Position numbers and translations under genes: made by a program. Below, piece after piece: positions 48,874 through 59,565 of a stretch of DNA of 64,000 nt (within the stretch, counting starts at the first letter, position 1; each line of letters starts with the position of its first letter). The DNA comes from an uncultured Alphaproteobacteria bacterium (lineage in GTDB: Bacteria > Pseudomonadota > Alphaproteobacteria > Sphingomonadales > Sphingomonadaceae), in the NCBI GenBank assembly GCA_963751145.1, contig CAVVTJ010000007.1, forward strand, positions 106,136 to 170,135, read 5' to 3'. The notes under the pieces are model-generated. The model was not told the origin of the DNA, searched no databases, and saw only the letters and a program-made list of their open reading frames with translations.

Positions 48874-51501
48874 CTAACTCCGCAGCCGCTCGATCGCCTG
48901 GGCGAGCGCGACATAAAGCTTGCCCATATCCGAAGACAGCAGCGTAACCCCAAGCGAATGGCCATCGCGCGTTGACAGCAGTTCACGCAGCATGGCTTCG
49001 AAATCATGGATATAGCGGCTGACGTGGTCGCGGAAATCGCGGTCGCCCTGATAGAGCTGGGTGATCGCCTTGGCCTCGGGTGCGTCCAGCAGCCGCACGG
49101 CACGGCGGGTAAAGATGCCGCGATCACCTTTCAGATAGGCTGCCCAGGCGGTATCGCTGACTTCATGATCCATCGACCGCGCGATATCGATCGCGTTCGA
49201 ATTGAGGCTTTCGGTGATCAGCGCCACGCGGCGGGCGAAATCGTTGTCGACCTGCTCTTCGGCGCGGCTGCGGGCGTGGGCTACGCGCCGTTCAAGGTTG
49301 CCGGCCAGTTCGTTGACCTTGCCCAGCTGATCGCGCAGCTGCACCGCCGCCTCACGGCTCGCGCCACTGGCCTTGGCGGCGGTTTGCTCCAGTTCGGCAA
49401 TCACCTCGGTTGCCCGCTCGCGCAGGGCGGCTTCCATCGCCGCACCGCCTTCGCTGCCTAGCCTTGCCGCAAGCGCGGTAATCGCCTCTGCGCTGATCGT
49501 TTCGATCCCGGCGACGGCATCGCGTGCCGCGGTGTTCAGGGCTTCAATCGCGGCGGTCAGTTCACCTTGCGTGTGCTGCGCGGTGGCCTGGCTTTCAGCG
49601 CGCAGCTTTTCAACCGAGCCTTGCAGCACCTCAACCCGCGCCGATTGCGCAGTCTGGTCCGTGGCCAGCGTTTCGCGCAGTTCGGCCGCCATGCCCATTG
49701 CGGCGACGATGCTGGAGCGGCTCGCCTCGGCATGACCGGCCAACACTTCGCTCTGGGCCACGGCATCGCCGGTGCTTTGGGTCAGTGTGGCGAATCGGCT
49801 TTCGATCCCGGCCAGCCGCTGTTCGCCCTGCGTCAGCGCTTTCGGCAGGCTTTCGCTCGAATGCTGGACACTGGCCTGGATCAGCTCGAGCAACCGCACT
49901 GAATTGTCAGTCAGCCCGGAAATCGCACTATCGGCATCGCGCAGCGCAGCCTGGCTGGTGCCCAGCCGGGTCTCTACTTCGGCCAGACTGGCAGCAAGCT
50001 TCGTCTGCGCCAGATCGCCGTGGCCGGCCAATGTGTCGAGCTGCTGGGCAAAGGCGCCCAGCTGTGTCTCAAGCTTTTCAGCGTGTCCTGCAAGCTGGTC
50101 GAAATGCAATTCCTGGACGCTGCGATGCTGCGCCGAAGCCGCTTCGAACTGTTCCATCTGGCCAGCCAGCCGATCGACGAATTCGCCATGGCGAGCATCG
50201 AAATCGGCCTGTCGTTTGTCCAGTTCGGCGGCGAACAAGGCGTCGCGTTCGCTCAGCCGGCGATCGACCTCTTCTGCTTCGGTGCGTAGAGCTTCAAGGC
50301 GGGTGCGGGCGCTTTCCATCGCCTTGCGGTCAACCTCGGCAACTTCTTCGATCGCGGTGCGAAGATCCTCTTCAAGCACCACGATCGCCTTTTTCCAGCT
50401 TTCGAGTGCCCCTAGCTCGGCATCGCGCAACGACCGGGCCAGGGCGCTGCTTTCATCGCGGACGCTGGCGAGCCGGGCGCGCAGCGATGTCAGGCTTTCA
50501 GCCTCATGCTCGTCCAGTGTGGACCGTGCAGCGACAAGTTCCTGATCCAGCGCGGCGGCGCGGCTGCGGATCGCGGCCAGTGCTTCGATCTCGCGCAGAT
50601 CAAGTTCGGCGCGCTGCTGTTCGCTGCTGTTATTGAGCGCGGCAAAGCGTTGCTGGGCAATTTCGCCCAGCTTGTCGGCTTGCTGGGTGAATTCGCCGAT
50701 CGTCTCATCGACCAGCGCCTTGAGGCCGCTGACCTGACGTTCACTCGCCTGACCGAACTGGTTGAGCTTATTGAACCCGCTCACCAGTTCCTCGATCTGG
50801 CCGTGCGCAGTGCGTCCGGCGGCGCCGATGTTGTTGGTCACGTCCTTGGCCGAACTGGCGATCACCGGCAGCTGGTTGCGCAGCTTTTCCATATTGTCGA
50901 GCGCGGCACTGCTGACATCGGCGATTGCATCAATCCGGTTGCCATTGTCATGGATCAGCGACGCCAAATTGGCTGCGTGTTGCGACAGCCGCTCCACCGC
51001 AACACGGCCCAGCGCATCGATATCGCGGGCCTGCGCGCCAATGAATTCGCGCGCCAGGCTAAGCTCACGGTTGACCGTGGAGAGGCGGGTTTCAAGCCGG
51101 GTGGATTCGTCGCCCAACAACCGCGCGGTCTCGCCAAAACGCTGCGCTTCGCGGCGGCTGTTGCGCATTGCGATCAGCCAGACAATCGCAATCAGCAGTA
51201 CCGGAACCGACCAGTCACGGACCCAGGCGGTCCACTGCGGCAAATCGGTGCTGGTGCGCATCGCCGGCAGATTGCTGGCCACAAACAGCGCCGTCCAGCC
51301 AAGCAGCAATGCCGCCGTAACCGCTGCACCCAGCATAAACGGCCAGTTTCGCGCCTTGGCAGCGGGCGCTTCCCACCAATCATCCGCCTCAGCCGGATTG
51401 TCCGGCGGCAGGACCTGATCCAGCACGTATTCGTCTGACGCGCCATCGGCAGCGGCAAGCGTTTCGACAGCGGAGATGCGCGATCCTTTGCTCATTCGCA
51501 C
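48874..51501 (-). CDS. TipN-like polar landmark protein (2 TM + long coiled coil + conserved C-terminal helical domain)
   Basis: Two N-terminal hydrophobic helices and a long heptad region; the C-terminus WAAYLKGDRGIFTRR...FRDHVSRYIHDFE...SSDMGKLYVALA resembles TipN/RgsE-type C-termini. Confidence 0.65.
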   Translation of the reverse strand: MRMSKGSRISAVETLAAADGASDEYVLDQVLPPDNPAEADDWWEAPAAKARNWPFMLGAAVTAALLLGWTALFVASNLPAMRTSTDLPQWTAWVRDWSVPVLLIAIVWLIAMRNSRREAQRFGETARLLGDESTRLETRLSTVNRELSLAREFIGAQARDIDALGRVAVERLSQHAANLASLIHDNGNRIDAIADVSSAALDNMEKLRNQLPVIASSAKDVTNNIGAAGRTAHGQIEELVSGFNKLNQFGQASERQVSGLKALVDETIGEFTQQADKLGEIAQQRFAALNNSSEQQRAELDLREIEALAAIRSRAAALDQELVAARSTLDEHEAESLTSLRARLASVRDESSALARSLRDAELGALESWKKAIVVLEEDLRTAIEEVAEVDRKAMESARTRLEALRTEAEEVDRRLSERDALFAAELDKRQADFDARHGEFVDRLAGQMEQFEAASAQHRSVQELHFDQLAGHAEKLETQLGAFAQQLDTLAGHGDLAQTKLAASLAEVETRLGTSQAALRDADSAISGLTDNSVRLLELIQASVQHSSESLPKALTQGEQRLAGIESRFATLTQSTGDAVAQSEVLAGHAEASRSSIVAAMGMAAELRETLATDQTAQSARVEVLQGSVEKLRAESQATAQHTQGELTAAIEALNTAARDAVAGIETISAEAITALAARLGSEGGAAMEAALRERATEVIAELEQTAAKASGASREAAVQLRDQLGKVNELAGNLERRVAHARSRAEEQVDNDFARRVALITESLNSNAIDIARSMDHEVSDTAWAAYLKGDRGIFTRRAVRLLDAPEAKAITQLYQGDRDFRDHVSRYIHDFEAMLRELLSTRDGHSLGVTLLSSDMGKLYVALAQAIERLRS

Positions 51502-51563: not shown

Positions 51564-51866
51564 ATGGCCTATGAAGCAGGAGCCCTTGACGCCACCCTTT
51601 CCGCCGCAGCAGGAGCGGATGCCGCGCTGTTTTCCGAGCTGCGCCAGGTCTTTGCCGAAAGCGTCGCGCGCCAGCTAGATCTGCTGCGCCGGTCGCGCTG
51701 CGACGGAAACTGGGAAATGGCCGCGCTCCGGCTCAAGGGGCTTGCTGCCAGCTTTCATGCCGAAAACCTGATCGAACTGGCAGAGGATGCTTTGGCCGGT
51801 GCTCCGGGCGATCCGGTGGTGCTGCGCCAGCTCCAAGCTTTTCTCGACGATTTTTCAGCGGCTTGA
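51564..51866 (+). CDS. Hpt-fold protein lacking the canonical His
   Basis: LRQVF...L..L.....W..AALRLKGLAASFHA matches the Hpt AHxLKGxA pattern with Leu at the His position. Start moved to MAYEA. Confidence 0.7.
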   Translation: MAYEAGALDATLSAAAGADAALFSELRQVFAESVARQLDLLRRSRCDGNWEMAALRLKGLAASFHAENLIELAEDALAGAPGDPVVLRQLQAFLDDFSAA

Positions 51867-51898
51867 TTGAACCTGCCAGAGTGTAATCGCCAATAGAC

Positions 51899-53170
51899 TT
51901 GGCACCGCGACTTTGCGCGCCTAAATCGGCCTCCCATTCCCGATTGGTGCGGAGAAAGACACTGCGGGTCGCGCTTTTGCCGATGCTGGAAATTGCTGTT
52001 GAAAGTGGCGGAGTGCCGCGGGCATTTCTGCGCGTTGGCGGGTCAAGCGTGGCCGGTCAGCAATTGGCAATTGCGCTGGGTTTGGGGTGTGAGCGGATTG
52101 TCTGCCTCGCTCTCTCGCTTACCAAAGATATCGTTGCGCTGCAGCATCAGGCGGAAAAGGCCGGAGCGCAGTTTCACGTGATCCCGGGCGCACGACCGCT
52201 GTTGGGGCTGGTCACCGCCACCGACGATGTGATTGCTTTTGCCGATGGGCTGTTTGCAGCCCGCCAGACGGCGCAGGATCTTCTTTCGGCGCAGCAGGCG
52301 GTGCTGGTTCAACCAGTTGAGCAGGGCCTTGCCGCTGGGTTTGAACGGATCGACATCAATCACGCTGCGGCAGGCGCGATGCGCATTCCGGGGCGATTGG
52401 TCGAACGGTTGGGTGAATTGCCGGCCGATTGCGATGTCGTATCTTCACTGCAGCGGATTGCGCTGCAGGCCGGGGTTCGGCAGCAGCCGCTGGGGCAGAT
52501 CGGGCCGGGCGCCGCGATCTGGTTTCTGGCCCGCAGCGAGCGCGAAGCCCACCAGATCGAACCGCTGTGGATCCGTCAGCACACTGGCGATTCGCTGCCG
52601 AACAATCCTTCGGGTGCAATTGCATCGATGGCGGTTCGTGCTTTCGGGCCGGCCATGCTCCACGCCGGAAGCGGATCGGGCGTGCTGGTGGTTGCAGCCG
52701 GCGTGGCGGCTTTGCTGGCGGTCATCGCCGGAGTTTTTGGATTTGTTGCAGCGGGCTTTGGTCTGTGTGTGATTGGCTGGGTCTTGCACGAATTTGCCGC
52801 GCTGCTGTCGCGGATTGAATCCGAGAATGCACCGCATCGGGTCATTGCGGGCGGGCTGTTTGCTTATGGCTGGTCGATCGACGCGCTGCTGGTGGTTTTA
52901 TTGGGACTCGCGGCAAGGCCGGAGCATCAGATGCATGCTGCCGAGCGGTTCTTTCCGGCGCTGATGCTGATAGCACTGCTGCGGATTCTGGCCGAAGTTT
53001 ACAGCGGCCGCTGGAGCCGGTGGATTGGCGATCGCGGAGTAGTGGCGGTCTTGCTGCTGGGCGCGGTAGCGGGCCGGGTGGCTGATGAAACCGCTCATCT
53101 TGGCGCGATCGCCGCGGCAGTGCTTGCGCTGTTGGCGCTGGGCAATAAATCGCGGCTAACCGGGCCTTAA
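51899..53170 (+). CDS. Hypothetical membrane protein: soluble N-terminal domain (weakly nucleotidyltransferase-like) plus several C-terminal TM helices; start uncertain
   Basis: PRAFLRVGGSSVAGQQL resembles the K-x-L-x-x-x-G-G-x-x-x-L start of GT-A nucleotidyltransferases; hydrophobic C-terminal third. Confidence 0.6.
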   Translation: MAPRLCAPKSASHSRLVRRKTLRVALLPMLEIAVESGGVPRAFLRVGGSSVAGQQLAIALGLGCERIVCLALSLTKDIVALQHQAEKAGAQFHVIPGARPLLGLVTATDDVIAFADGLFAARQTAQDLLSAQQAVLVQPVEQGLAAGFERIDINHAAAGAMRIPGRLVERLGELPADCDVVSSLQRIALQAGVRQQPLGQIGPGAAIWFLARSEREAHQIEPLWIRQHTGDSLPNNPSGAIASMAVRAFGPAMLHAGSGSGVLVVAAGVAALLAVIAGVFGFVAAGFGLCVIGWVLHEFAALLSRIESENAPHRVIAGGLFAYGWSIDALLVVLLGLAARPEHQMHAAERFFPALMLIALLRILAEVYSGRWSRWIGDRGVVAVLLLGAVAGRVADETAHLGAIAAAVLALLALGNKSRLTGP

Positions 53171-53184
53171 CCAAACCGGGTTAT
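53156..53184. promoter_or_regulatory. CtrA-like box CTAA-N7-TTAACC followed by GGTTAT
   Basis: One mismatch to consensus; overlaps the upstream stop and the downstream ATG. Confidence 0.55.
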
Positions 53185-54163
53185 GGCGCTGAGCATGACC
53201 GAATTTTCTGCCCCATCTGCAGGCCCTGGTGCGATCGACGCTGTGTTGCGTCAGGAATTGGCGCAAGGCGACGCGCAAATTGCATCGATTGCGCCGATCC
53301 TGCGTCACTTGCTGGCCAATGACGAACATTCTGTGTTCGGTGACGAGGTGATCGCCCGGGTGCGCGGCATGCTTGCCGATGTGGCCCGGCAATTGCTCGA
53401 TGCCCTGGTTGCGGCGCGCGGCGAAGGCGATGATCTGGATCATCCCAGCGCCGAAGTGGATACGCTGGTGACGGCTTTGGCTGGGATCGCCGGGTTTTTG
53501 ACCCATGTCCATGCGCTGGCGCTGGAATGGCAGCTAACTGAACGCCTGCAGGCCAGATTGGCGCTGGACCCGGTGGTTTCCCCGCTGCTGCAGGCGCTGA
53601 TTGCATCAATCGAGCCGCCCACGGCCGCAGCTGCAATGGCCTTGCTAGCGCAGCAGGCGCGCTTTGCTCAGAACCAGCGCCGGATGCAGTTGCCCTTGGC
53701 CGAGCTGCCGGGCGACCTGTTCCACGGCGCACTGATTACGCTGCAGAACCACGCCCATACCGATCCTGCGGCTTTGGCTGCGGTGGATCAGGCGGTGGCC
53801 CATATTCGCAAGGAATTTGATGAAAGCCGCAATCGGCTTGGCCTGATATCTCGTCTGGTTGCCGGAATGGGCGGCGGGGCCAGCGCCGCTCTTAGCATCA
53901 CCCACGCGGGGACGGCGATCTTCCTCAGTGCACTGGCGCTGGCTTCGGGCCATGACCGCGATCTGGCGGTACTCTCAACCAACGAAAGCCAGGTCGCGCG
54001 GTTCGCGCTGGCCTTGCGCGCGGCGGGGCTCAAGCCGCAATCGATCGACGAGCAATTTGCAGCGCTGCATCCTGAAGTGACGCTGCCGGGCGGTTTTGAG
54101 ACTTTGGGGACCGATCGCGCTGCAGCCTTGCTGGCCCATTCTCCGGCCTATTTGGCCCGTTGA
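53183..54163 (+). CDS. All-helical hypothetical protein, possibly DUF2336-like
   Basis: Host-like codon usage, Ala/Leu-rich helical pattern, TTGA overlap with the kinase gene. The family assignment is weak. Confidence 0.55.
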   Translation: MALSMTEFSAPSAGPGAIDAVLRQELAQGDAQIASIAPILRHLLANDEHSVFGDEVIARVRGMLADVARQLLDALVAARGEGDDLDHPSAEVDTLVTALAGIAGFLTHVHALALEWQLTERLQARLALDPVVSPLLQALIASIEPPTAAAAMALLAQQARFAQNQRRMQLPLAELPGDLFHGALITLQNHAHTDPAALAAVDQAVAHIRKEFDESRNRLGLISRLVAGMGGGASAALSITHAGTAIFLSALALASGHDRDLAVLSTNESQVARFALALRAAGLKPQSIDEQFAALHPEVTLPGGFETLGTDRAAALLAHSPAYLAR

Positions 54164-55587
54164 TCACCGTGACCACATCCCCCCAAGACGCACCATCGGG
54201 CCGCAGTGACGCAGCTGACCGGCTGATCGCGGCCAACGAGCCGCTGGCAGGCCTGCAGCGGGCCTGCGGCGGAGAGATTCCAGGCGATATCGCCATCCCG
54301 GCCTTGCGCGAACTGGTTGGCAAGGCGCGCAAGTTCGGGCTCAAACTGGCCCGCGCGATCAAGGCTACTGATGGCCGCGATACGATCTCTGCGTGGATCG
54401 AAGTTGCACCAGATAGCGATGGCTGCGCAATCCGGATTGTCTCGTGGAGCACCAGCCAGCTCGCACCCGAAGATCCGCACGAGGTCGCCGCGCACCGCGC
54501 CGCCATCGAGCGTACTCTGGCTGAATTGACCGCCACGCTCGATGCCCGGCAGTGCGTGCTCAGTGTCACCGCAACCGCTGCCGATCTTTCCGAATTGCAG
54601 CAGGCGATGGCGCAGGGGCTACACCGCCCATGGACCGATTTCGTCCAGATCGAAGGCGCGGTGCACGAACAGCCGATGCATTGGCGCCTGCTTGATGGCG
54701 CAGCGATCAAGGTTGCCGGATCAAGCCGGAACTGGCGCGCGGCGCTGTTGCCGAGCGACCGGCCGGGTAGCGATCCCGTCGGGTTCGATCTGTGCCTGAC
54801 TGCCGATAGCCCGCTGCCCGAACCCGAACCGAAGCCATCCCCGGCGCACTCGTCCTCGATCATGCCCAGCAACGAGCCCGGCCTGGTCGGGCGCGATATT
54901 GCCCCGGTGCTGCGGCAACCGATCGCTCGGATCATTGCCAATGCCGAGACGATCCGCAATCGAATGGCCGGACCCTTGGCCGAGGAATACAGCCAGTATG
55001 CCGCTGATATCGCCGCCGCCGGGCAACACCTGCTCGCGCTGGTTGAAGATCTGACTGATCTTGAGGTGGTCGAGGCTGAAGAGTTCAACACCGCGCCCGA
55101 CCGGATTGACCTGGCCGATGTGGCGCGCCGCGCCAGCGGCATTCTGGGGGTGCGCGCGCAGGAACGCGGGATCACCATCGATGCACCCAGGCACGGTGAA
55201 ACCTTGCCTGCGATTGCTGAATTTCGCCGCGTGCTGCAGATTCTGCTCAATCTTGTGGGCAATGCGATCCGCTATGCGCCGGATAATTCGCAGGTCTGGA
55301 TCAGGCTTGAGGATGCTGGCGTCCGCGCCCGGCTGATCGTTGCCGATCAGGGCCCGGGTCTGGATGACGCGCAGCAAAGCAAGGTGTTCGAAAAGTTCGA
55401 GCGTCTTGGCCGCAGCGGCGAGGACGGCGGCTCGGGCCTGGGTCTTTACATCTCGCGCCGTTTGGCCCGCGCCATGGGCGGTGATCTGGAAATCGAAAGT
55501 GCAATGGGGCAGGGCGCGCGGTTTATCCTCGACCTGCCGGCCGATCTGCTGGCCTCAGCTCCGACGACCGCGCAGGATCCAGATTAA
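54160..55587 (+). CDS. Cytoplasmic PAS-like + HisKA-like + HATPase protein lacking the phospho-His (pseudo-histidine kinase)
   Basis: N box QILLNLVGNAIRY, G1 DQGPG, F box FEKFER and G2 GSGLGL are intact; the H box reads IAPVLRQP instead of SHELRTP. Confidence 0.85.
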   Translation: MITVTTSPQDAPSGRSDAADRLIAANEPLAGLQRACGGEIPGDIAIPALRELVGKARKFGLKLARAIKATDGRDTISAWIEVAPDSDGCAIRIVSWSTSQLAPEDPHEVAAHRAAIERTLAELTATLDARQCVLSVTATAADLSELQQAMAQGLHRPWTDFVQIEGAVHEQPMHWRLLDGAAIKVAGSSRNWRAALLPSDRPGSDPVGFDLCLTADSPLPEPEPKPSPAHSSSIMPSNEPGLVGRDIAPVLRQPIARIIANAETIRNRMAGPLAEEYSQYAADIAAAGQHLLALVEDLTDLEVVEAEEFNTAPDRIDLADVARRASGILGVRAQERGITIDAPRHGETLPAIAEFRRVLQILLNLVGNAIRYAPDNSQVWIRLEDAGVRARLIVADQGPGLDDAQQSKVFEKFERLGRSGEDGGSGLGLYISRRLARAMGGDLEIESAMGQGARFILDLPADLLASAPTTAQDPD

Positions 55588-55770
55588 CCCAGCCCAGCCA
55601 AGCGCCCACAGAATGCCGTAAAGCGTCCAGCGGCGGTCAGCCAGCATGAAGCTTTCAGGCGGCCACATGATAATGCCCAGCCCTTGCAGCGCCCAGAACA
55701 GCCCCGAAAAAACCATCAGTGCCGCGATGATCATATAGATCACGCTGAGCGGACCTCGCAGAGATTCCAT
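55555..55770 (-). CDS. Small two-TM membrane protein (71 aa)
   Basis: GGGGAG RBS; GLFWALQGLG..MWP.ESFM pattern; downstream of gltA; its 3' end overlaps the kinase 3' end by 33 nt. Confidence 0.65.
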   Translation of the reverse strand: MESLRGPLSVIYMIIAALMVFSGLFWALQGLGIIMWPPESFMLADRRWTLYGILWALGWAGLIWILRGRRS

Positions 55771-55810
55771 CGTCAAATTCTCCCCATAAAGGACGGGTAT
55801 TGACCGCAAT

Positions 55811-57094
55811 TCAGCGCTTGTCCACCGCCACGTAATCGCGCGCGACCGGGCCGGTGTAGAGCTGACGCGGCCTTCCGATCTTCTGGTTGGGATCGCTGAT
55901 CATTTCGTTCCATTGCGCCACCCAGCCTACCGTCCGCGCGAGCGCGAACAGCACGGTGAACATGGTGGTCGGGAAACCGATCGCCGAGAGGATCACGCCG
56001 GAATAGAAATCCACATTGGGGAACAGCTTCTTCTCGATGAAATAGGGATCGTTGAGCGCCATTTCTTCAAGTTGCAGCGCAACTTCGAACACCGGATCGG
56101 TGACCTTGAGTGCTGCGAACACTTCGCGCACGGTCTGCTGCATCACGGTCGCACGGGGATCGTAGTTCTTATAGACGCGGTGGCCAAAGCCCATCAGGCG
56201 GAACGGATCGTTCTTGTCCTTGGCCCGCTCGATGTAATGGGGGATACGGTCGGGCGTGCCGATTTCGTGCAGCATGTTGAGCGCGGCTTCGTTGGCCCCG
56301 CCGTGCGCAGGCCCCCACAGGCAGGCGATGCCCGCCGCGATGCAGGCAAACGGGTTCGCGCCCGATGACCCGGCCAAACGGACTGTGCTGGTCGAGGCGT
56401 TCTGTTCGTGATCGGCGTGGAGGATGAAAATCCGGTCCAGGGCCTTTTCGACCACCGGATTGACCTCATATTTCTCGGCCGGGACGCCAAAGGTCATGCG
56501 CAGGAAGTTGCCGGTGTAGGACAGCGAGTTGTCCGGATAGACGAACGGCTGGCCGACCGAATACTTGTAGGCCATCGCCGCGATCGTTGGCATCTTGGCG
56601 ATCAGGCGGTGCGAGCTGATCTTGCGGTGTTCAGGATCGGCAATGTCGGTCGAATCGTGATAGAATGCCGATAGCGCTCCCACCACGCCGCACATGATTG
56701 CCATCGGGTGCGCATCGCGGCGGAACCCGCGGTAGAACGTGGCGAGCTGCTCGTGCAGCATGGTGTGGCGGGTGATGGTGGTTTCGAATTTGGCCAGCTC
56801 GGCTGCGCTCGGCAATTCGCCGTTGAGCAGCAGATGGCTGACTTCCATGAAGCTGGAATGTTCGGCCAGCTGACCGATTGGATAACCGCGGTGCAGCAGC
56901 ACGCCTTCATCACCGTCGATATAGGTCAGCGCGCTTTCACATGAAGCGGTGGAAGTGAACCCCGGATCGAACGTAAACTGGCCGGTCTGGGCATAGAGTT
57001 TGCGAATATCGATGACATCAGGGCCAACGCTGCCCGAAACCACCGGATAGGTGAATTCGGCGCCCGCCGTGTTCAATTTTGCTTCCTTGCCCAC
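55811..57094 (-). CDS. gltA: Citrate synthase (type II)
   Basis: [35 protein letters not shown]. Confidence 0.98.
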
Positions 57095-57288
57095 TTTCCC
57101 AAACTCCTTGGCCAGAACGCCGGACGATTGCCTGGATTGTTGCCGATAGCCTATCCGCTTTTGGCCACCTATCCGGTTATTACCGGGCTAGGGGCCTTTG
57201 CTGGGAAATTGCCGAACGCCCGGAAACAGCAGGACAAATCGAAGCGCGCGCTTGCCAAGCGCAGTGCCATCGGGTCTCTTGCTCCTCC

Positions 57289-59565
57289 ATGGCCAGCGAC
57301 AATTCGCCCTTGGTGCCAATCGGCAGCGATCCGCCGCTTGGCGCTGCACTGCAGCAAAAGCATTGGCGCAAGCCGTTGGACTTGTCCAGCGCCCTTGTGC
57401 GCGTCGCTGCGCGGGTCGAAAAATTCCTAGAAAGCGCCGGATACGATCTTGGCCCCTGGCCCGTTGCCGGGCTGGCGGTGGGCATCGCAGCGTGGTTTGC
57501 CGGCGGCAATTCGTGGCAGTGGGTGGCAGCAATTGCGCTGGGCCTGGGTGCGGCACTGGGCGCCAGCGCGGCGATGGGATCAGAGGGCCGTTTCACGCTG
57601 CTGCGCCGCGCGGTGCAGGTGATGGGGATTGCCTTTGCAGGTGGCTGCGCGCTGGTCTGGGCCAAGGCCGCGCTGATCGGCACGCCGCCGATCGAACGGC
57701 CGATGGTGGTCAGGATCGATGCCCGGGTGCTTTCGCGGGAAGAATTGCCTGCCGACGAAAAGGTCAGGCTGATCGTGGCAACGCGCGATCCCGAAAGCGG
57801 CCGCGCCATTGCCGTTCGGGTGTCGTTAAATAGCACAGCCGATAGCGCCGGGATTACCGAGGGTTCGCTGCTGCGGCTGCGGGCGCGCCTGGTCCCGCCA
57901 GCGCCGCCGATGTTGCCCGGTGGATGTGATTTTGCCCGCAGTGCGTGGTTTTCGGGGCTGGCAGCAACCGGGAGCGTGCTGGGGCCGATCGAAGTGCTGC
58001 AGCCGGGCAAGGAAGGCGGCTTGATCCAGTCGGCCCAGCGCAGCCTTTCGCATCACGTCCGCTCGCAACTGAGCGGTTCGCCCGGGACGCTGGCGGCGGC
58101 CTTTGCCAGCGGGGATCGCGGGGCGATCGCGCCTGACGATGAAGACGCGATGCGCGATGCCGGCCTCACGCATTTGCTGTCGATCAGCGGACTGCATGTG
58201 AGCGCGGTTATTGCTGCGGCCTATGTCATTGTCTTGCGGCTGCTGGCGCTGATCCCGTGGCTGGCCTTGCGGCTGCGGCTGCCAATCGTTGCTGCAGGGG
58301 CCGGGGCGGCAGCCGGGATTGGCTACACGCTGCTGACCGGCGCGCAGGTGCCGACCATCCGATCCTGCATAGGGGCAGTGTTGGTGATGCTGGCGCTGGT
58401 GCTGGGGCGCGAGGCCTTGTCGATGCGAATGGTGGCGGTTGCGGCGCTGGTGGTGCTGGTGATCTGGCCGGAAGCCCTGGTTGGGCCGGGCTTCCAGATG
58501 AGCTTTGCCTCGGTGATTGCGATCGTTGCGCTACACGGCTCGGCACCGATGCGCGCTTTTCTGGCTCCCCGCGAAGAGCCAATCTGGCAGCGCTGGTTGC
58601 GGCAGCTAACGGCGATCCTGGCCACCGGTGTGGTGATCGAACTGGCGTTGATGCCGATCGGTCTGTTCCACTTTCACCGCGCCGGGGTTTACGGCGCGCT
58701 GGCCAATGTGATCGCGATTCCTTTGACCACTTTAGCCTCGATGCCGCTGATTGCGCTGGCCTTGCTGTTTGACAGTTTCGGCGCGGGCGCGCCGTTCTGG
58801 TGGCTGGCGGGCAAGTCGCTCGAACTGCTGCTCGCGCTGGCGCATTGGACCGCGGCCTTGCCCGGCGCGGTGACGATGATGCCAGCAATGGGGCAGGGCG
58901 CGTTTGCCTTGTTTGTTGGCGGCGGGCTGTGGCTGGCGTTGTGGCGGGGGCGGGTGCGGCTGTACGGGCTGGCTCCGGCGATGCTGGGGCTGCTGCTGCT
59001 GGGCAGGATTACCCCACCAGACCTGCTAATCTCGGGCGATGGCCGCCATGTCGGGATAACCGGGGAAAGCGCCAGCGAACTTCTGGTGCTGCGCGAAACC
59101 CGAAGTGAATATACCCGCGACAATCTGCTTGAACAGGCCGGGATGGATGGGGAGATCCGGCTGCTTGATGATTGGCCGGGCGCGCGTTGCACCCCAGGGT
59201 TTTGCGCGATCCGGATTGAGCGCGGCGGCCGGACTTGGCAGCTGCTGCTGGCACGCGGCACTGCCATGGTTGAGGAGCGCGCGCTGGCGGCGGCGTGCGA
59301 GCGGGCCGACATCGTAGTTGCGGCGCGCTATCTCCCCTATTCGTGCCAGCCGCGCTGGATCAAGGCGGATCGGCGGATGCTGGATACCACCGGCGGGTTG
59401 ACGATCGATCTGAACCGACAGCGGCTTGATACGGTGGCGCAGCACGAAGGCGAACATGGCTGGTGGAGCCCACCCGCAGCCCGGCAGCGGCGGCCCTGGC
59501 CCGCGCCGACTGCCAGCGGCGATGCCGACGCTGCCAGTGCCAACGTGTCAGCCAAGACGCCTTAG
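57289..59565 (+). CDS. comEC: ComEC/Rec2 family competence membrane protein
   Basis: [37 protein letters not shown]. Start moved to MASDN. Confidence 0.92.

Follow-up and report, generated by a model that had tools for sequence, protein, structure and literature searches.

DivL, NifL, RetS, and PsmA indicate that two-component folds are reusable as sensors or scaffolds, and the few such proteins characterised were each found by genetics. In this study, a 64,000-nucleotide stretch of DNA from an uncultured Alphaproteobacteria bacterium of the Sphingomonadaceae (contig CAVVTJ010000007.1, positions 106,136 to 170,135; hereafter the window) was analysed for a gene cluster at window positions 51564-55587, in which a histidine kinase homologue and an Hpt-like protein both lack the phospho-acceptor His.

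DivL carries a Tyr at the His position and retains ELRTP, and its transmitter module reads DivK~P. NifL keeps its H-domain His, and its GHKL domain retains nucleotide binding, with ADP/ATP modulating the binding to a non-receiver partner, NifA. CheA works as a split kinase, and ShpA and ShkA carry their histidines and transfer phosphate. Signalling of the pseudo-histidine kinase DivL via protein contacts of its transmitter module has been described (PMC4211667, PMC9430884). PsmA of the Streptomyces polarisome is a tandem-PAS histidine pseudokinase and binds DivIVA, a polarity protein of the coiled-coil type (PMC12963549), and the Arabidopsis pseudo-HPt AHP6, in which the His is substituted, competes with functional HPts for partners (PMC7402358).

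The cluster comprises four open reading frames (ORFs) on the same strand, encoding in order an Hpt-like protein, a membrane protein, a helical DUF2336-type protein, and a kinase-like protein. It had been singled out by an earlier inspection of the letters alone (the sequence-only reading), which claimed that two His-less proteins with retained folds, the kinase with intact ATP-binding boxes, bracket a membrane protein and a helical DUF2336-like protein and that no response regulator lies in the cluster, and which suggested, with DivL as a known pseudokinase, that the four genes form a scaffold or allosteric module. The features of the cluster are as follows.

51564..51866, plus strand: pseudo-Hpt of 100 aa, predicted four-helix bundle, ShpA-like; Leu55 codon at 51726-51728, motif AALRLKGLA at 51720-51746
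51899..53170, plus strand (start uncertain, 51899-51983): polytopic membrane protein of 395-423 aa with an N-terminal cytoplasmic nucleotidyltransferase-like domain and about five transmembrane segments
53183..54163, plus strand: helical protein of 326 aa, putative divergent DUF2336 member, some positional orthologues of which match PF10098
54160..55587, plus strand: cytoplasmic His-less histidine kinase homologue of 475 aa (PAS-like, PAS-like, linker, DHp, CA)
54898-54921, plus strand: degenerate H-box IAPVLRQP of the kinase-like protein; Pro249 codon at 54904-54906
55243-55281 (N), 55339-55365 (G1), 55384-55407 (F), and 55426-55467 (G2), plus strand: ATP boxes of the kinase-like protein

The kinase-like protein lacks the phospho-acceptor and keeps its ATP site

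Codon 54904 is CCG and encodes Pro249 of the 475-aa protein, within IAPVLRQP. In an ungapped phmmer alignment to HK853 (2c2a/3dge), ISHELRTPL lies over IAPVLRQPI, in agreement with the sequence-only reading, which had placed a Pro at this codon in the position of the His and had noted the loss of the adjacent acidic residue. Pfam matched the protein to HisKA (32 bits) and HATPase_c (96 bits); the HisKA match begins at profile position 13, past the His, and the register of the H-box is independent of Pfam because it was set by the phmmer alignment to solved structures. The protein is therefore without the His, without the following acidic residue, and without the T/N residue of the phosphatase motif D/E-x-x-T/N as described in PMC12963549.

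Through a HMMER search over 1.84 billion cluster representatives, approximately 135 family members were found to rank before the first canonical SHELRTP kinases, and conservation was assessed in 103 full-length relatives, down to about 35% identity. Among these 103, position 249 is most often P (41), followed by R (14), S (11), T (8), E (7), and A (6), while Tyr and His were each found once; the entropy of 2.96 bits is among the highest of the DHp columns. Position 250 (+1) is A or V in 88 relatives and D/E in none, and T or N was found at +4 in five. Residues L251, R252, P254, R257, I258, A262, and I265 are almost invariant, and this conserved helix-1 stretch (L251-I265) aligns ungapped with the residues after His260 of HK853, its regulator-contact region. 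The single His at the H-box position belongs to an AT-rich lineage (L088), whose protein reads DHSFKP without the acidic residue and outside any ELRTP context.

An alternative acceptor was looked for and not found: no column of DHp helix 1 has His in more than five of the 103 sequences. His290 of DHp helix 2, present in 99 relatives, was rejected as a candidate because canonical SHELRTP kinases carry the same 'GRHLL' His, which makes it an inherited structural residue.

Quite different constraint was found at the ATP site. As had been claimed, none of the N, G1, F, and G2 boxes is missing: N364, N368, D396, G398, F410, G424, G426, and G428 are invariant in the 103 relatives, G400 is kept in 100, and R371, the basic residue of the N box, is found in 83. 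Given the variable position 249 and the invariant ATP-box residues, the acceptor site appears free to vary, whereas the ATP pocket and the adjacent helix-1 stretch appear constrained. Because the phospho-acceptor, the acid next to it, and the phosphatase T/N residue are all absent, canonical autophosphorylation, phosphotransfer, and phosphatase activity of the kinase-like protein are ruled out as far as the lost residues can tell.

The fold is retained. The domain spans are PAS-like 13-100, PAS-like 106-215, a disordered linker, DHp 243-305, and CA 314-461, and a DHp four-helix bundle with a GHKL CA domain was found by Pfam, by PDB alignments, and by an AlphaFold2 (AF2) model searched with Foldseek. 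In this model, which has a predicted local distance difference test score (pLDDT) of 85, Pro249 lies inside helix 1 of the DHp hairpin and the CA domain is normal; its Foldseek neighbours are WalK, NifL-NifA, LOV kinases, HK853, DivL, and RetS. The top PDB match of the single sequence was ShkA (6qrj), which was not the best match with the family profile. The profile scored 119-121 bits against the ordinary kinases HK853 and 7z8n versus 84 bits against DivL (4q20), so that orthology with DivL was rejected and the parallel drawn by the sequence-only reading does not stand as a specific kinship.

A receiver (REC) domain was searched by phmmer with CheY and the PhoB receiver as queries. None was found in the window among ORFs of 50 aa or more (E<10), which agrees with the claim that the cluster has no response regulator, nor in 83 loci (from L001-L084, not L085-L088; E<1e-3).

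The Hpt-like protein has also lost its histidine

Codon 51726 is CTC, encoding Leu55 within AALRLKGLA, and alignment to Caulobacter ShpA (2ooc) places AVHTVKGAA over this stretch. Both the Leu and the register claimed earlier are thus upheld. At the sequence level the assignment to Hpt is weak: the window protein scored 16.8 bits against Pfam Hpt (PF01627), under the cutoff of 24.6, ten of 17 orthologues matched at E<1 (best E 8e-6), and the family profile searched against the PDB recovered no Hpt proteins and lost the ShpA match. The protein was therefore modelled. The AF2 model has a pLDDT of 90 and five helices, and Foldseek against the PDB returned ShpA first (33% identity, TM score 0.68) and then almost exclusively HPt proteins, including Shewanella HPt, HptB, ZmHP2, YojN, and AHP2 among the top matches. 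By this model, the 100-aa protein is predicted to be an Hpt four-helix bundle, closest to ShpA, and the earlier claim of retained folds holds for both His-less proteins.

Comparison of 17 order-wide orthologues and some additional sequences found the His position occupied by L, M, Q, R, Y, A, or F. In contrast to this variation in the orthologues' acceptor site, R56 never changes; K58 and G59 are present in the majority of the 17 and in every one of 37 Novosphingobium sequences, and S33, C46, and D47 are almost invariant. The only His of the window protein, His65 in SFH, was considered as acceptor and rejected, being Gly, the residue of canonical Hpt proteins, in Sphingomonas-type orthologues and Y/Q in some Novosphingobium ones. 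Hence the loss of His extends across the orthologues of both proteins, and no other His takes the active position in either, two of the points on which the sequence-only reading could have failed.

Two further observations concern this protein. Between its helices 2 and 3 lies a near-invariant 'RCDxNW' loop with conserved Cys46 (window 51696-51713, residues 45-50). In Sphingomonas sp. QA11 (CP098774.1, L085:4334-4705), a canonical 123-aa Hpt with its His intact (PAHTLKGEA) is encoded just past the coiled-coil gene that adjoins the cluster, and no canonical Hpt was found near the cluster in the window or in the loci other than QA11.

A three-gene core is conserved across Sphingomonadales

All named family members belong to Sphingomonadales, and the names attached to its nearest homologues place the window's organism in Novosphingobium. 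Close relatives are found in Novosphingobium, Erythrobacter, Tsuneonella, Pontixanthobacter, Altererythrobacter, and Caenibius, and distant ones in Sphingomonas, Sphingobium, Sphingorhabdus, Sphingosinithalassobacter, and Qipengyuania. The genome scan of relatives covered the best 80 loci, all from close Sphingomonadales, and members beyond the order could lie outside its range. Together with the window's own Logan contig, these made up 81 loci, in which tblastn searches beside the kinase-like gene recovered the helical gene 80 times, the membrane-protein gene 78 times, the Hpt-like gene 73 times, and the coiled-coil gene 71 times; most misses were on short or truncated contigs. The shared order is coiled-coil (minus strand), Hpt-like, membrane protein, helical protein, kinase-like, and gltA (minus strand). 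Since general synteny is conserved in these genomes too, this order is weak evidence by itself, and the loci that tell more are as follows.

Sphingomonas sp. QA11, Sphingorhabdus, and L084: all five genes retained
Sphingomonas koreensis (L082) and Sphingosinithalassobacter (L086): other neighbourhood with NamZ upstream; membrane protein, DUF2336, and kinase-like genes only
Sphingobium (L083): integrase and phage-like genes directly 5' of the DUF2336/kinase pair
L016 and L017, two uncultured Novosphingobium metagenome-assembled genomes: no Hpt-like gene
L088, the AT-rich lineage: no Hpt-like gene

The genes for the membrane protein, the DUF2336 protein, and the kinase-like protein remain side by side in S. 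koreensis and Sphingosinithalassobacter despite the broken flanking synteny, and the Hpt-like gene is absent beside the cluster in at least three lineages (L016/L017, L082/L086, and L088). Because the Hpt-like gene is missing beside the cluster in several lineages, the constant unit is a core of three genes, membrane protein, DUF2336, and kinase-like, and the Hpt-like gene is a frequent accessory adjoining the coiled-coil gene, which lies outside the coordinates given in the sequence-only reading. The proposed linkage thus stands for these three genes, and the four-gene module as a whole does not. The ratio of nonsynonymous to synonymous substitution rates (dN/dS) of 0.10-0.38 for all four genes indicates purifying selection. 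Both His losses exceed chance and are conserved order-wide under this selection.

The individual loci differ in detail. Approximately 140 bp separate the coiled-coil and membrane-protein genes in L016 (7637-7778) and L017, with the rest of the genes intact. L088 (4118-11416; Logan SRR30563903) carries genes for a coiled-coil protein of 1015 aa, a membrane protein of 450 aa, a DUF2336 protein, and a kinase-like protein. A conserved protein of 184-208 aa and NamZ (exo-MurNAc-ase family) replace the coiled-coil/Hpt-like pair before the core in L082 (3940-5687) and L086 (5803-7625). In Sphingobium L083 (1-8004; Logan ERR7184425), a phage-type integrase and about 12 small phage-like ORFs (Peptidase_S24, HipA_2, DUF3037) occupy the place of the membrane-protein gene in other genomes, and the DUF2336 ORF has an N-terminal extension; this looks like a mobile element inserted within the cluster.

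The DUF2336 and membrane proteins

The 326-aa helical protein itself has no Pfam match (E<1). PF10098 (DUF2336) was matched by six of 18 positional orthologues, from Sphingomonas, Sphingobium, and L088 (best E 2e-14), and a hidden Markov model (HMM) of the helical family connects the window protein to PF10098-matching proteins with E values of 3e-7 and 8e-8, in support of the earlier DUF2336-like assignment and, together with the gene order, of the claim that the two His-less genes bracket a membrane protein and such a protein. The profile searched against the PDB found no relative, and the two papers mentioning DUF2336 in the literature searched are irrelevant to the cluster. At 54160-54163 (TTGA), the stop codon of this gene and the start codon of the kinase-like gene share bases, and the two overlap or abut in each of the lineages examined; this conserved arrangement suggests that the two genes may be translationally coupled.

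The profile of 17 membrane-protein orthologues matched 4mnd, the archaeal bifunctional IPCT/DIPPS, at E=2e-6. The match spans the linker and first transmembrane helices, and the match of the N-terminal domain is weak, aligning GGVPRAFLRVGG with GGVPKPLVRVGG in the 4mnd comparison; NTP_transf_3 was weakly matched by three of the 17 orthologues. Five transmembrane segments were found by hydropathy within residues 234-387. Canonical nucleotidyltransferases carry a GxGxR loop. At its expected position the family reads PMLEIAVES or ATEDADDR, a region that the 4mnd alignment does not cover. PF01066 was not matched by the family. CDP-alcohol transferases carry the motif DxxDGxxAR...GxxxDxxxD, of which DGCDGEIAR in 4mnd is a part; when the family is aligned to DGCDGEIAR by HMM, other residues stand in place of its acidic ones, with one conserved Asp further on (WSIDALL in the window). 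The membrane protein hence looks like a degenerate IPCT/DIPPS-like homologue, the third pseudo-enzyme of the cluster, a point missed by the sequence-only reading, and is likely not an enzyme, to judge by its motifs.

Four start candidates were noted for its gene: TTG 51899, GTG 51947, TTG 51977, and ATG 51983. A stretch 'LRVALL', located 5' of the called ATG at the expected first beta-strand of the nucleotidyltransferase fold, is conserved in the orthologues, and because it precedes the ATG, the called start probably lies too far downstream.

Comparison with described systems

Although pseudo-histidine kinases are an established kind of protein, the combination at this locus is new: a pseudo-histidine kinase whose ATP site is fully conserved is joined by a pseudo-Hpt of bacterial origin, a DUF2336 protein, and a degenerate IPCT/DIPPS-like membrane protein, all kept across one order. 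No published description of the cluster was located in the literature searched, in line with the sequence-only reading, which had known of none.

The kinase-like protein shares with DivL its alphaproteobacterial origin, PAS content, HisKA type, and the lack of a phospho-acceptor His. However, its His position is hypervariable and its acidic residue lost, and DivL is membrane-anchored with more PAS domains. NifL combines tandem PAS domains with a kinase-like transmitter without autophosphorylation, as is proposed for the kinase-like protein, and the NifL-NifA complex (9qq6) was the second-best Foldseek match of the whole model. The likeness seen is one of architecture and fold, and whereas NifL is encoded with its target NifA, the cluster contains no AAA+ activator and has DUF2336, a membrane pseudo-enzyme, and a pseudo-Hpt instead. 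With PsmA, the kinase-like protein has in common the tandem PAS-DHp-CA order, variation among orthologues where the His would be, and the lack of a phosphatase motif; the PsmA partner DivIVA is a coiled coil, and a gene for a TipN-like coiled-coil protein adjoins the cluster here. Conversely, PsmA has degenerate ATP-binding motifs, a long disordered linker, and a REC domain (PMC12963549), while the kinase-like protein has an invariant ATP site and no REC; PsmA, which comes from another phylum, is also not accompanied by a nearby Hpt.

Both AHP6 and the pseudo-Hpt have an Hpt fold with the phospho-acceptor His substituted. AHP6 is eukaryotic, with Asn at the site and a known cytokinin phosphorelay, in contrast to the pseudo-Hpt with its variable residue and no linked phosphorelay partner. 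In the Caulobacter ShkA-ShpA-TacA phosphorelay, ShpA is the protein of solved structure that comes nearest to the Hpt-like protein, both in sequence and in fold. ShkA has the order DHp-CA-REC-REC and no PAS domains, unlike the kinase-like protein with tandem PAS and no REC. Finally, the membrane protein has the same architecture of N-terminal domain, linker, and transmembrane region as IPCT/DIPPS (the Archaeoglobus cytidylyltransferase/CDP-alcohol phosphotransferase, 4mnd), but the nucleotide-binding loop and the acidic transferase residues are not recognisable in it.

Proposed function and alternative explanations

As the sequence-only reading had proposed, the cluster most likely signals by binding rather than by phosphotransfer, to judge from the pattern of lost and kept residues. 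In its fuller form, this would be a phosphotransfer-independent signalling or scaffold complex conserved across Sphingomonadales and confined to that order, in which a nucleotide-binding pseudokinase acts via protein contacts in the manner of NifL, DivL, or PsmA; we hold this form tentatively, at somewhat less than an even chance. A pseudokinase without DHp autophosphorylation would, with its CA domain intact, still bind and possibly hydrolyse ATP. Its nucleotide state and a PAS-sensed cue would set the DHp/CA conformation, and this conformation would govern the binding of partners at the conserved helix-1 stretch. The DUF2336 protein would be the likeliest stoichiometric partner of the pseudokinase and would link it to the IPCT/DIPPS-like protein, through which the complex would be held at the inner membrane; its position there may be set by the TipN-like coiled-coil membrane protein. 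As for the pseudo-Hpt, it would serve as an accessory adaptor or as a decoy for a receiver domain. Since the K and G of the HxxKG face are largely kept and R56 is invariant, it probably still docks, either on a receiver domain or on the pseudokinase itself, which would make it the bacterial equivalent of AHP6 in plants. What was observed are the residue losses and their conservation, the folds, the linkage of the genes, and purifying selection; that the pseudokinase binds ATP, that a complex forms and is tethered to the membrane, and that partners dock are steps that we infer.

Several points weigh against this proposal. Every ATP-contacting motif is invariant, including the Mg-binding Asn, which is more than some pseudokinases retain (PsmA lost them), and the invariant ATP site leaves room for kinase activity of a non-canonical kind and could reflect real catalysis on another substrate. 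The pseudo-Hpt is dispensable or unlinked in several lineages and hence no obligatory part. The general synteny (nuo...rnj...gltA...comEC) is itself conserved in the order, which makes the adjacency of the coiled-coil gene weak evidence alone, and membrane tethering through the IPCT/DIPPS-like protein is pure conjecture.

A more elaborate version, which we regard as rather unlikely, would be an order-specific machine of pseudo-enzymes: the His-less kinase, the His-less Hpt, and the motif-less IPCT/DIPPS-like protein, together with DUF2336 and the TipN-like landmark. Its sole remaining chemistry, ATP binding or turnover by the CA domain, would drive a conformational switch; by sequestering their receivers, this switch would put unlinked two-component pathways under the control of a cue from the membrane, from lipids, or from the cell pole.

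The invariance of all ATP-binding and catalytic CA residues would also suit a CheA-like split kinase, in which the DHp domain serves for dimerisation only (like CheA P3), the target of the CA domain is a His of another protein encoded elsewhere, such as a canonical Hpt, and the pseudo-Hpt is a competing decoy or regulator. An Hpt-fold protein is indeed encoded beside the kinase-like gene, and a canonical Hpt lies next to the coiled-coil gene in Sphingomonas sp. QA11. However, QA11 is the only locus with one, the window included; the DHp and CA domains are of the ordinary HisKA type without CheA P2/P5 domains, and no conserved His was found in the Hpt-like, DUF2336, or membrane proteins, which leaves a split kinase unlikely.

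The same invariant site could otherwise belong to a kinase repurposed for Ser/Thr/Tyr on a cluster partner, or to a pure ATPase, for which the anti-sigma kinases SpoIIAB/RsbW, PDK/BCKDK, and some plant receptors derived from histidine kinases offer parallels. In keeping with this, HATPase_c_2, the anti-sigma kinase type, weakly matched the window protein and many orthologues, some orthologue records at JGI are named 'anti-sigma regulatory factor (Ser/Thr protein kinase)', and S33, C46, and D47 of the pseudo-Hpt are near-invariant. Nevertheless, the HATPase_c_2 match is below threshold (24 versus 27.4 bits) and overlapped by the far stronger HATPase_c match, and the cluster has no STAS, anti-anti-sigma, or sigma-factor gene, so that we consider such an activity improbable.

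That the cluster is a non-functional remnant of a decaying two-component or phosphorelay operon, as the lost catalytic residues in three proteins and the missing Hpt-like gene in some lineages might suggest, has a negligible chance and was ruled out by the dN/dS values and by order-wide conservation, with intact ORFs throughout the order, invariant ATP-box and nearly invariant helix-1 positions, and a preserved DUF2336/kinase overlap.

Neighbouring genes and annotation

Two further ORFs flank the cluster.

48874..51501, minus strand: TipN-like coiled-coil membrane protein of 875 aa, divergent from the cluster, with transmembrane segments at residues 56-74 and 94-112
55555..55809, minus strand: small ORF of 71-84 aa with two transmembrane segments, convergent with the kinase-like gene, the two overlapping by 33 bp at the 3' end of the kinase-like gene

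The 875-aa protein has two N-terminal transmembrane segments by hydropathy, a long coiled coil, indicated by weak Apolipoprotein matches in Pfam, and a conserved C-terminal region; no NCBIfam match was found for it. Two N-terminal transmembrane segments and a large coiled coil are likewise the architecture of TipN (PMC4085708), and the protein can be called TipN-like by architecture only. The coiled-coil gene also adjoins the cluster in Sphingomonas QA11, Sphingorhabdus, and L088. The small ORF is a gene call on the Logan contig, conserved by tblastn in 45 of the 81 loci and without a Pfam match; its membership in the cluster is doubtful.

On the 3' side, this small convergent membrane ORF is followed by gltA (citrate synthase, minus strand) and comEC. 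In the window, gltA directly abuts comEC (55811-59565), while gltX (glutamyl-tRNA synthetase) lies between them in Sphingomonas, Sphingobium, and L088. The comEC ORF of the window has approximately 140 residues before its DUF4131 domain that overlap the gltA start, and its true start therefore probably lies further downstream.

A scan for promoters and terminators gave no signal above background. In a search of sequencing runs, the identical contig and near-identical DNA were found among the DNA runs only in sediment and freshwater metagenomes; since the matching runs were all metagenomic DNA, the search returned no transcript data for the operon. In public records, the proteins are named 'sensor histidine kinase', 'Hpt domain-containing protein', 'DUF2336 domain-containing protein', and 'hypothetical protein'.

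Implications

The locus raises the question of what role an intact CA domain plays without a histidine to phosphorylate, and whether bacteria have pseudo-HPt decoys in the manner of plant AHP6. It likewise raises that of the function of DUF2336 proteins, which in public records appear only as DUF2336 domain-containing or hypothetical. Because genetic tools for sphingomonads, such as Novosphingobium aromaticivorans and Zymomonas, are the subject of a review, experimental study of the cluster should be feasible. If the machine of pseudo-enzymes outlined above were real, it would pair a bacterial pseudo-HPt with a pseudo-histidine kinase, a pair that has not been described in the literature searched.

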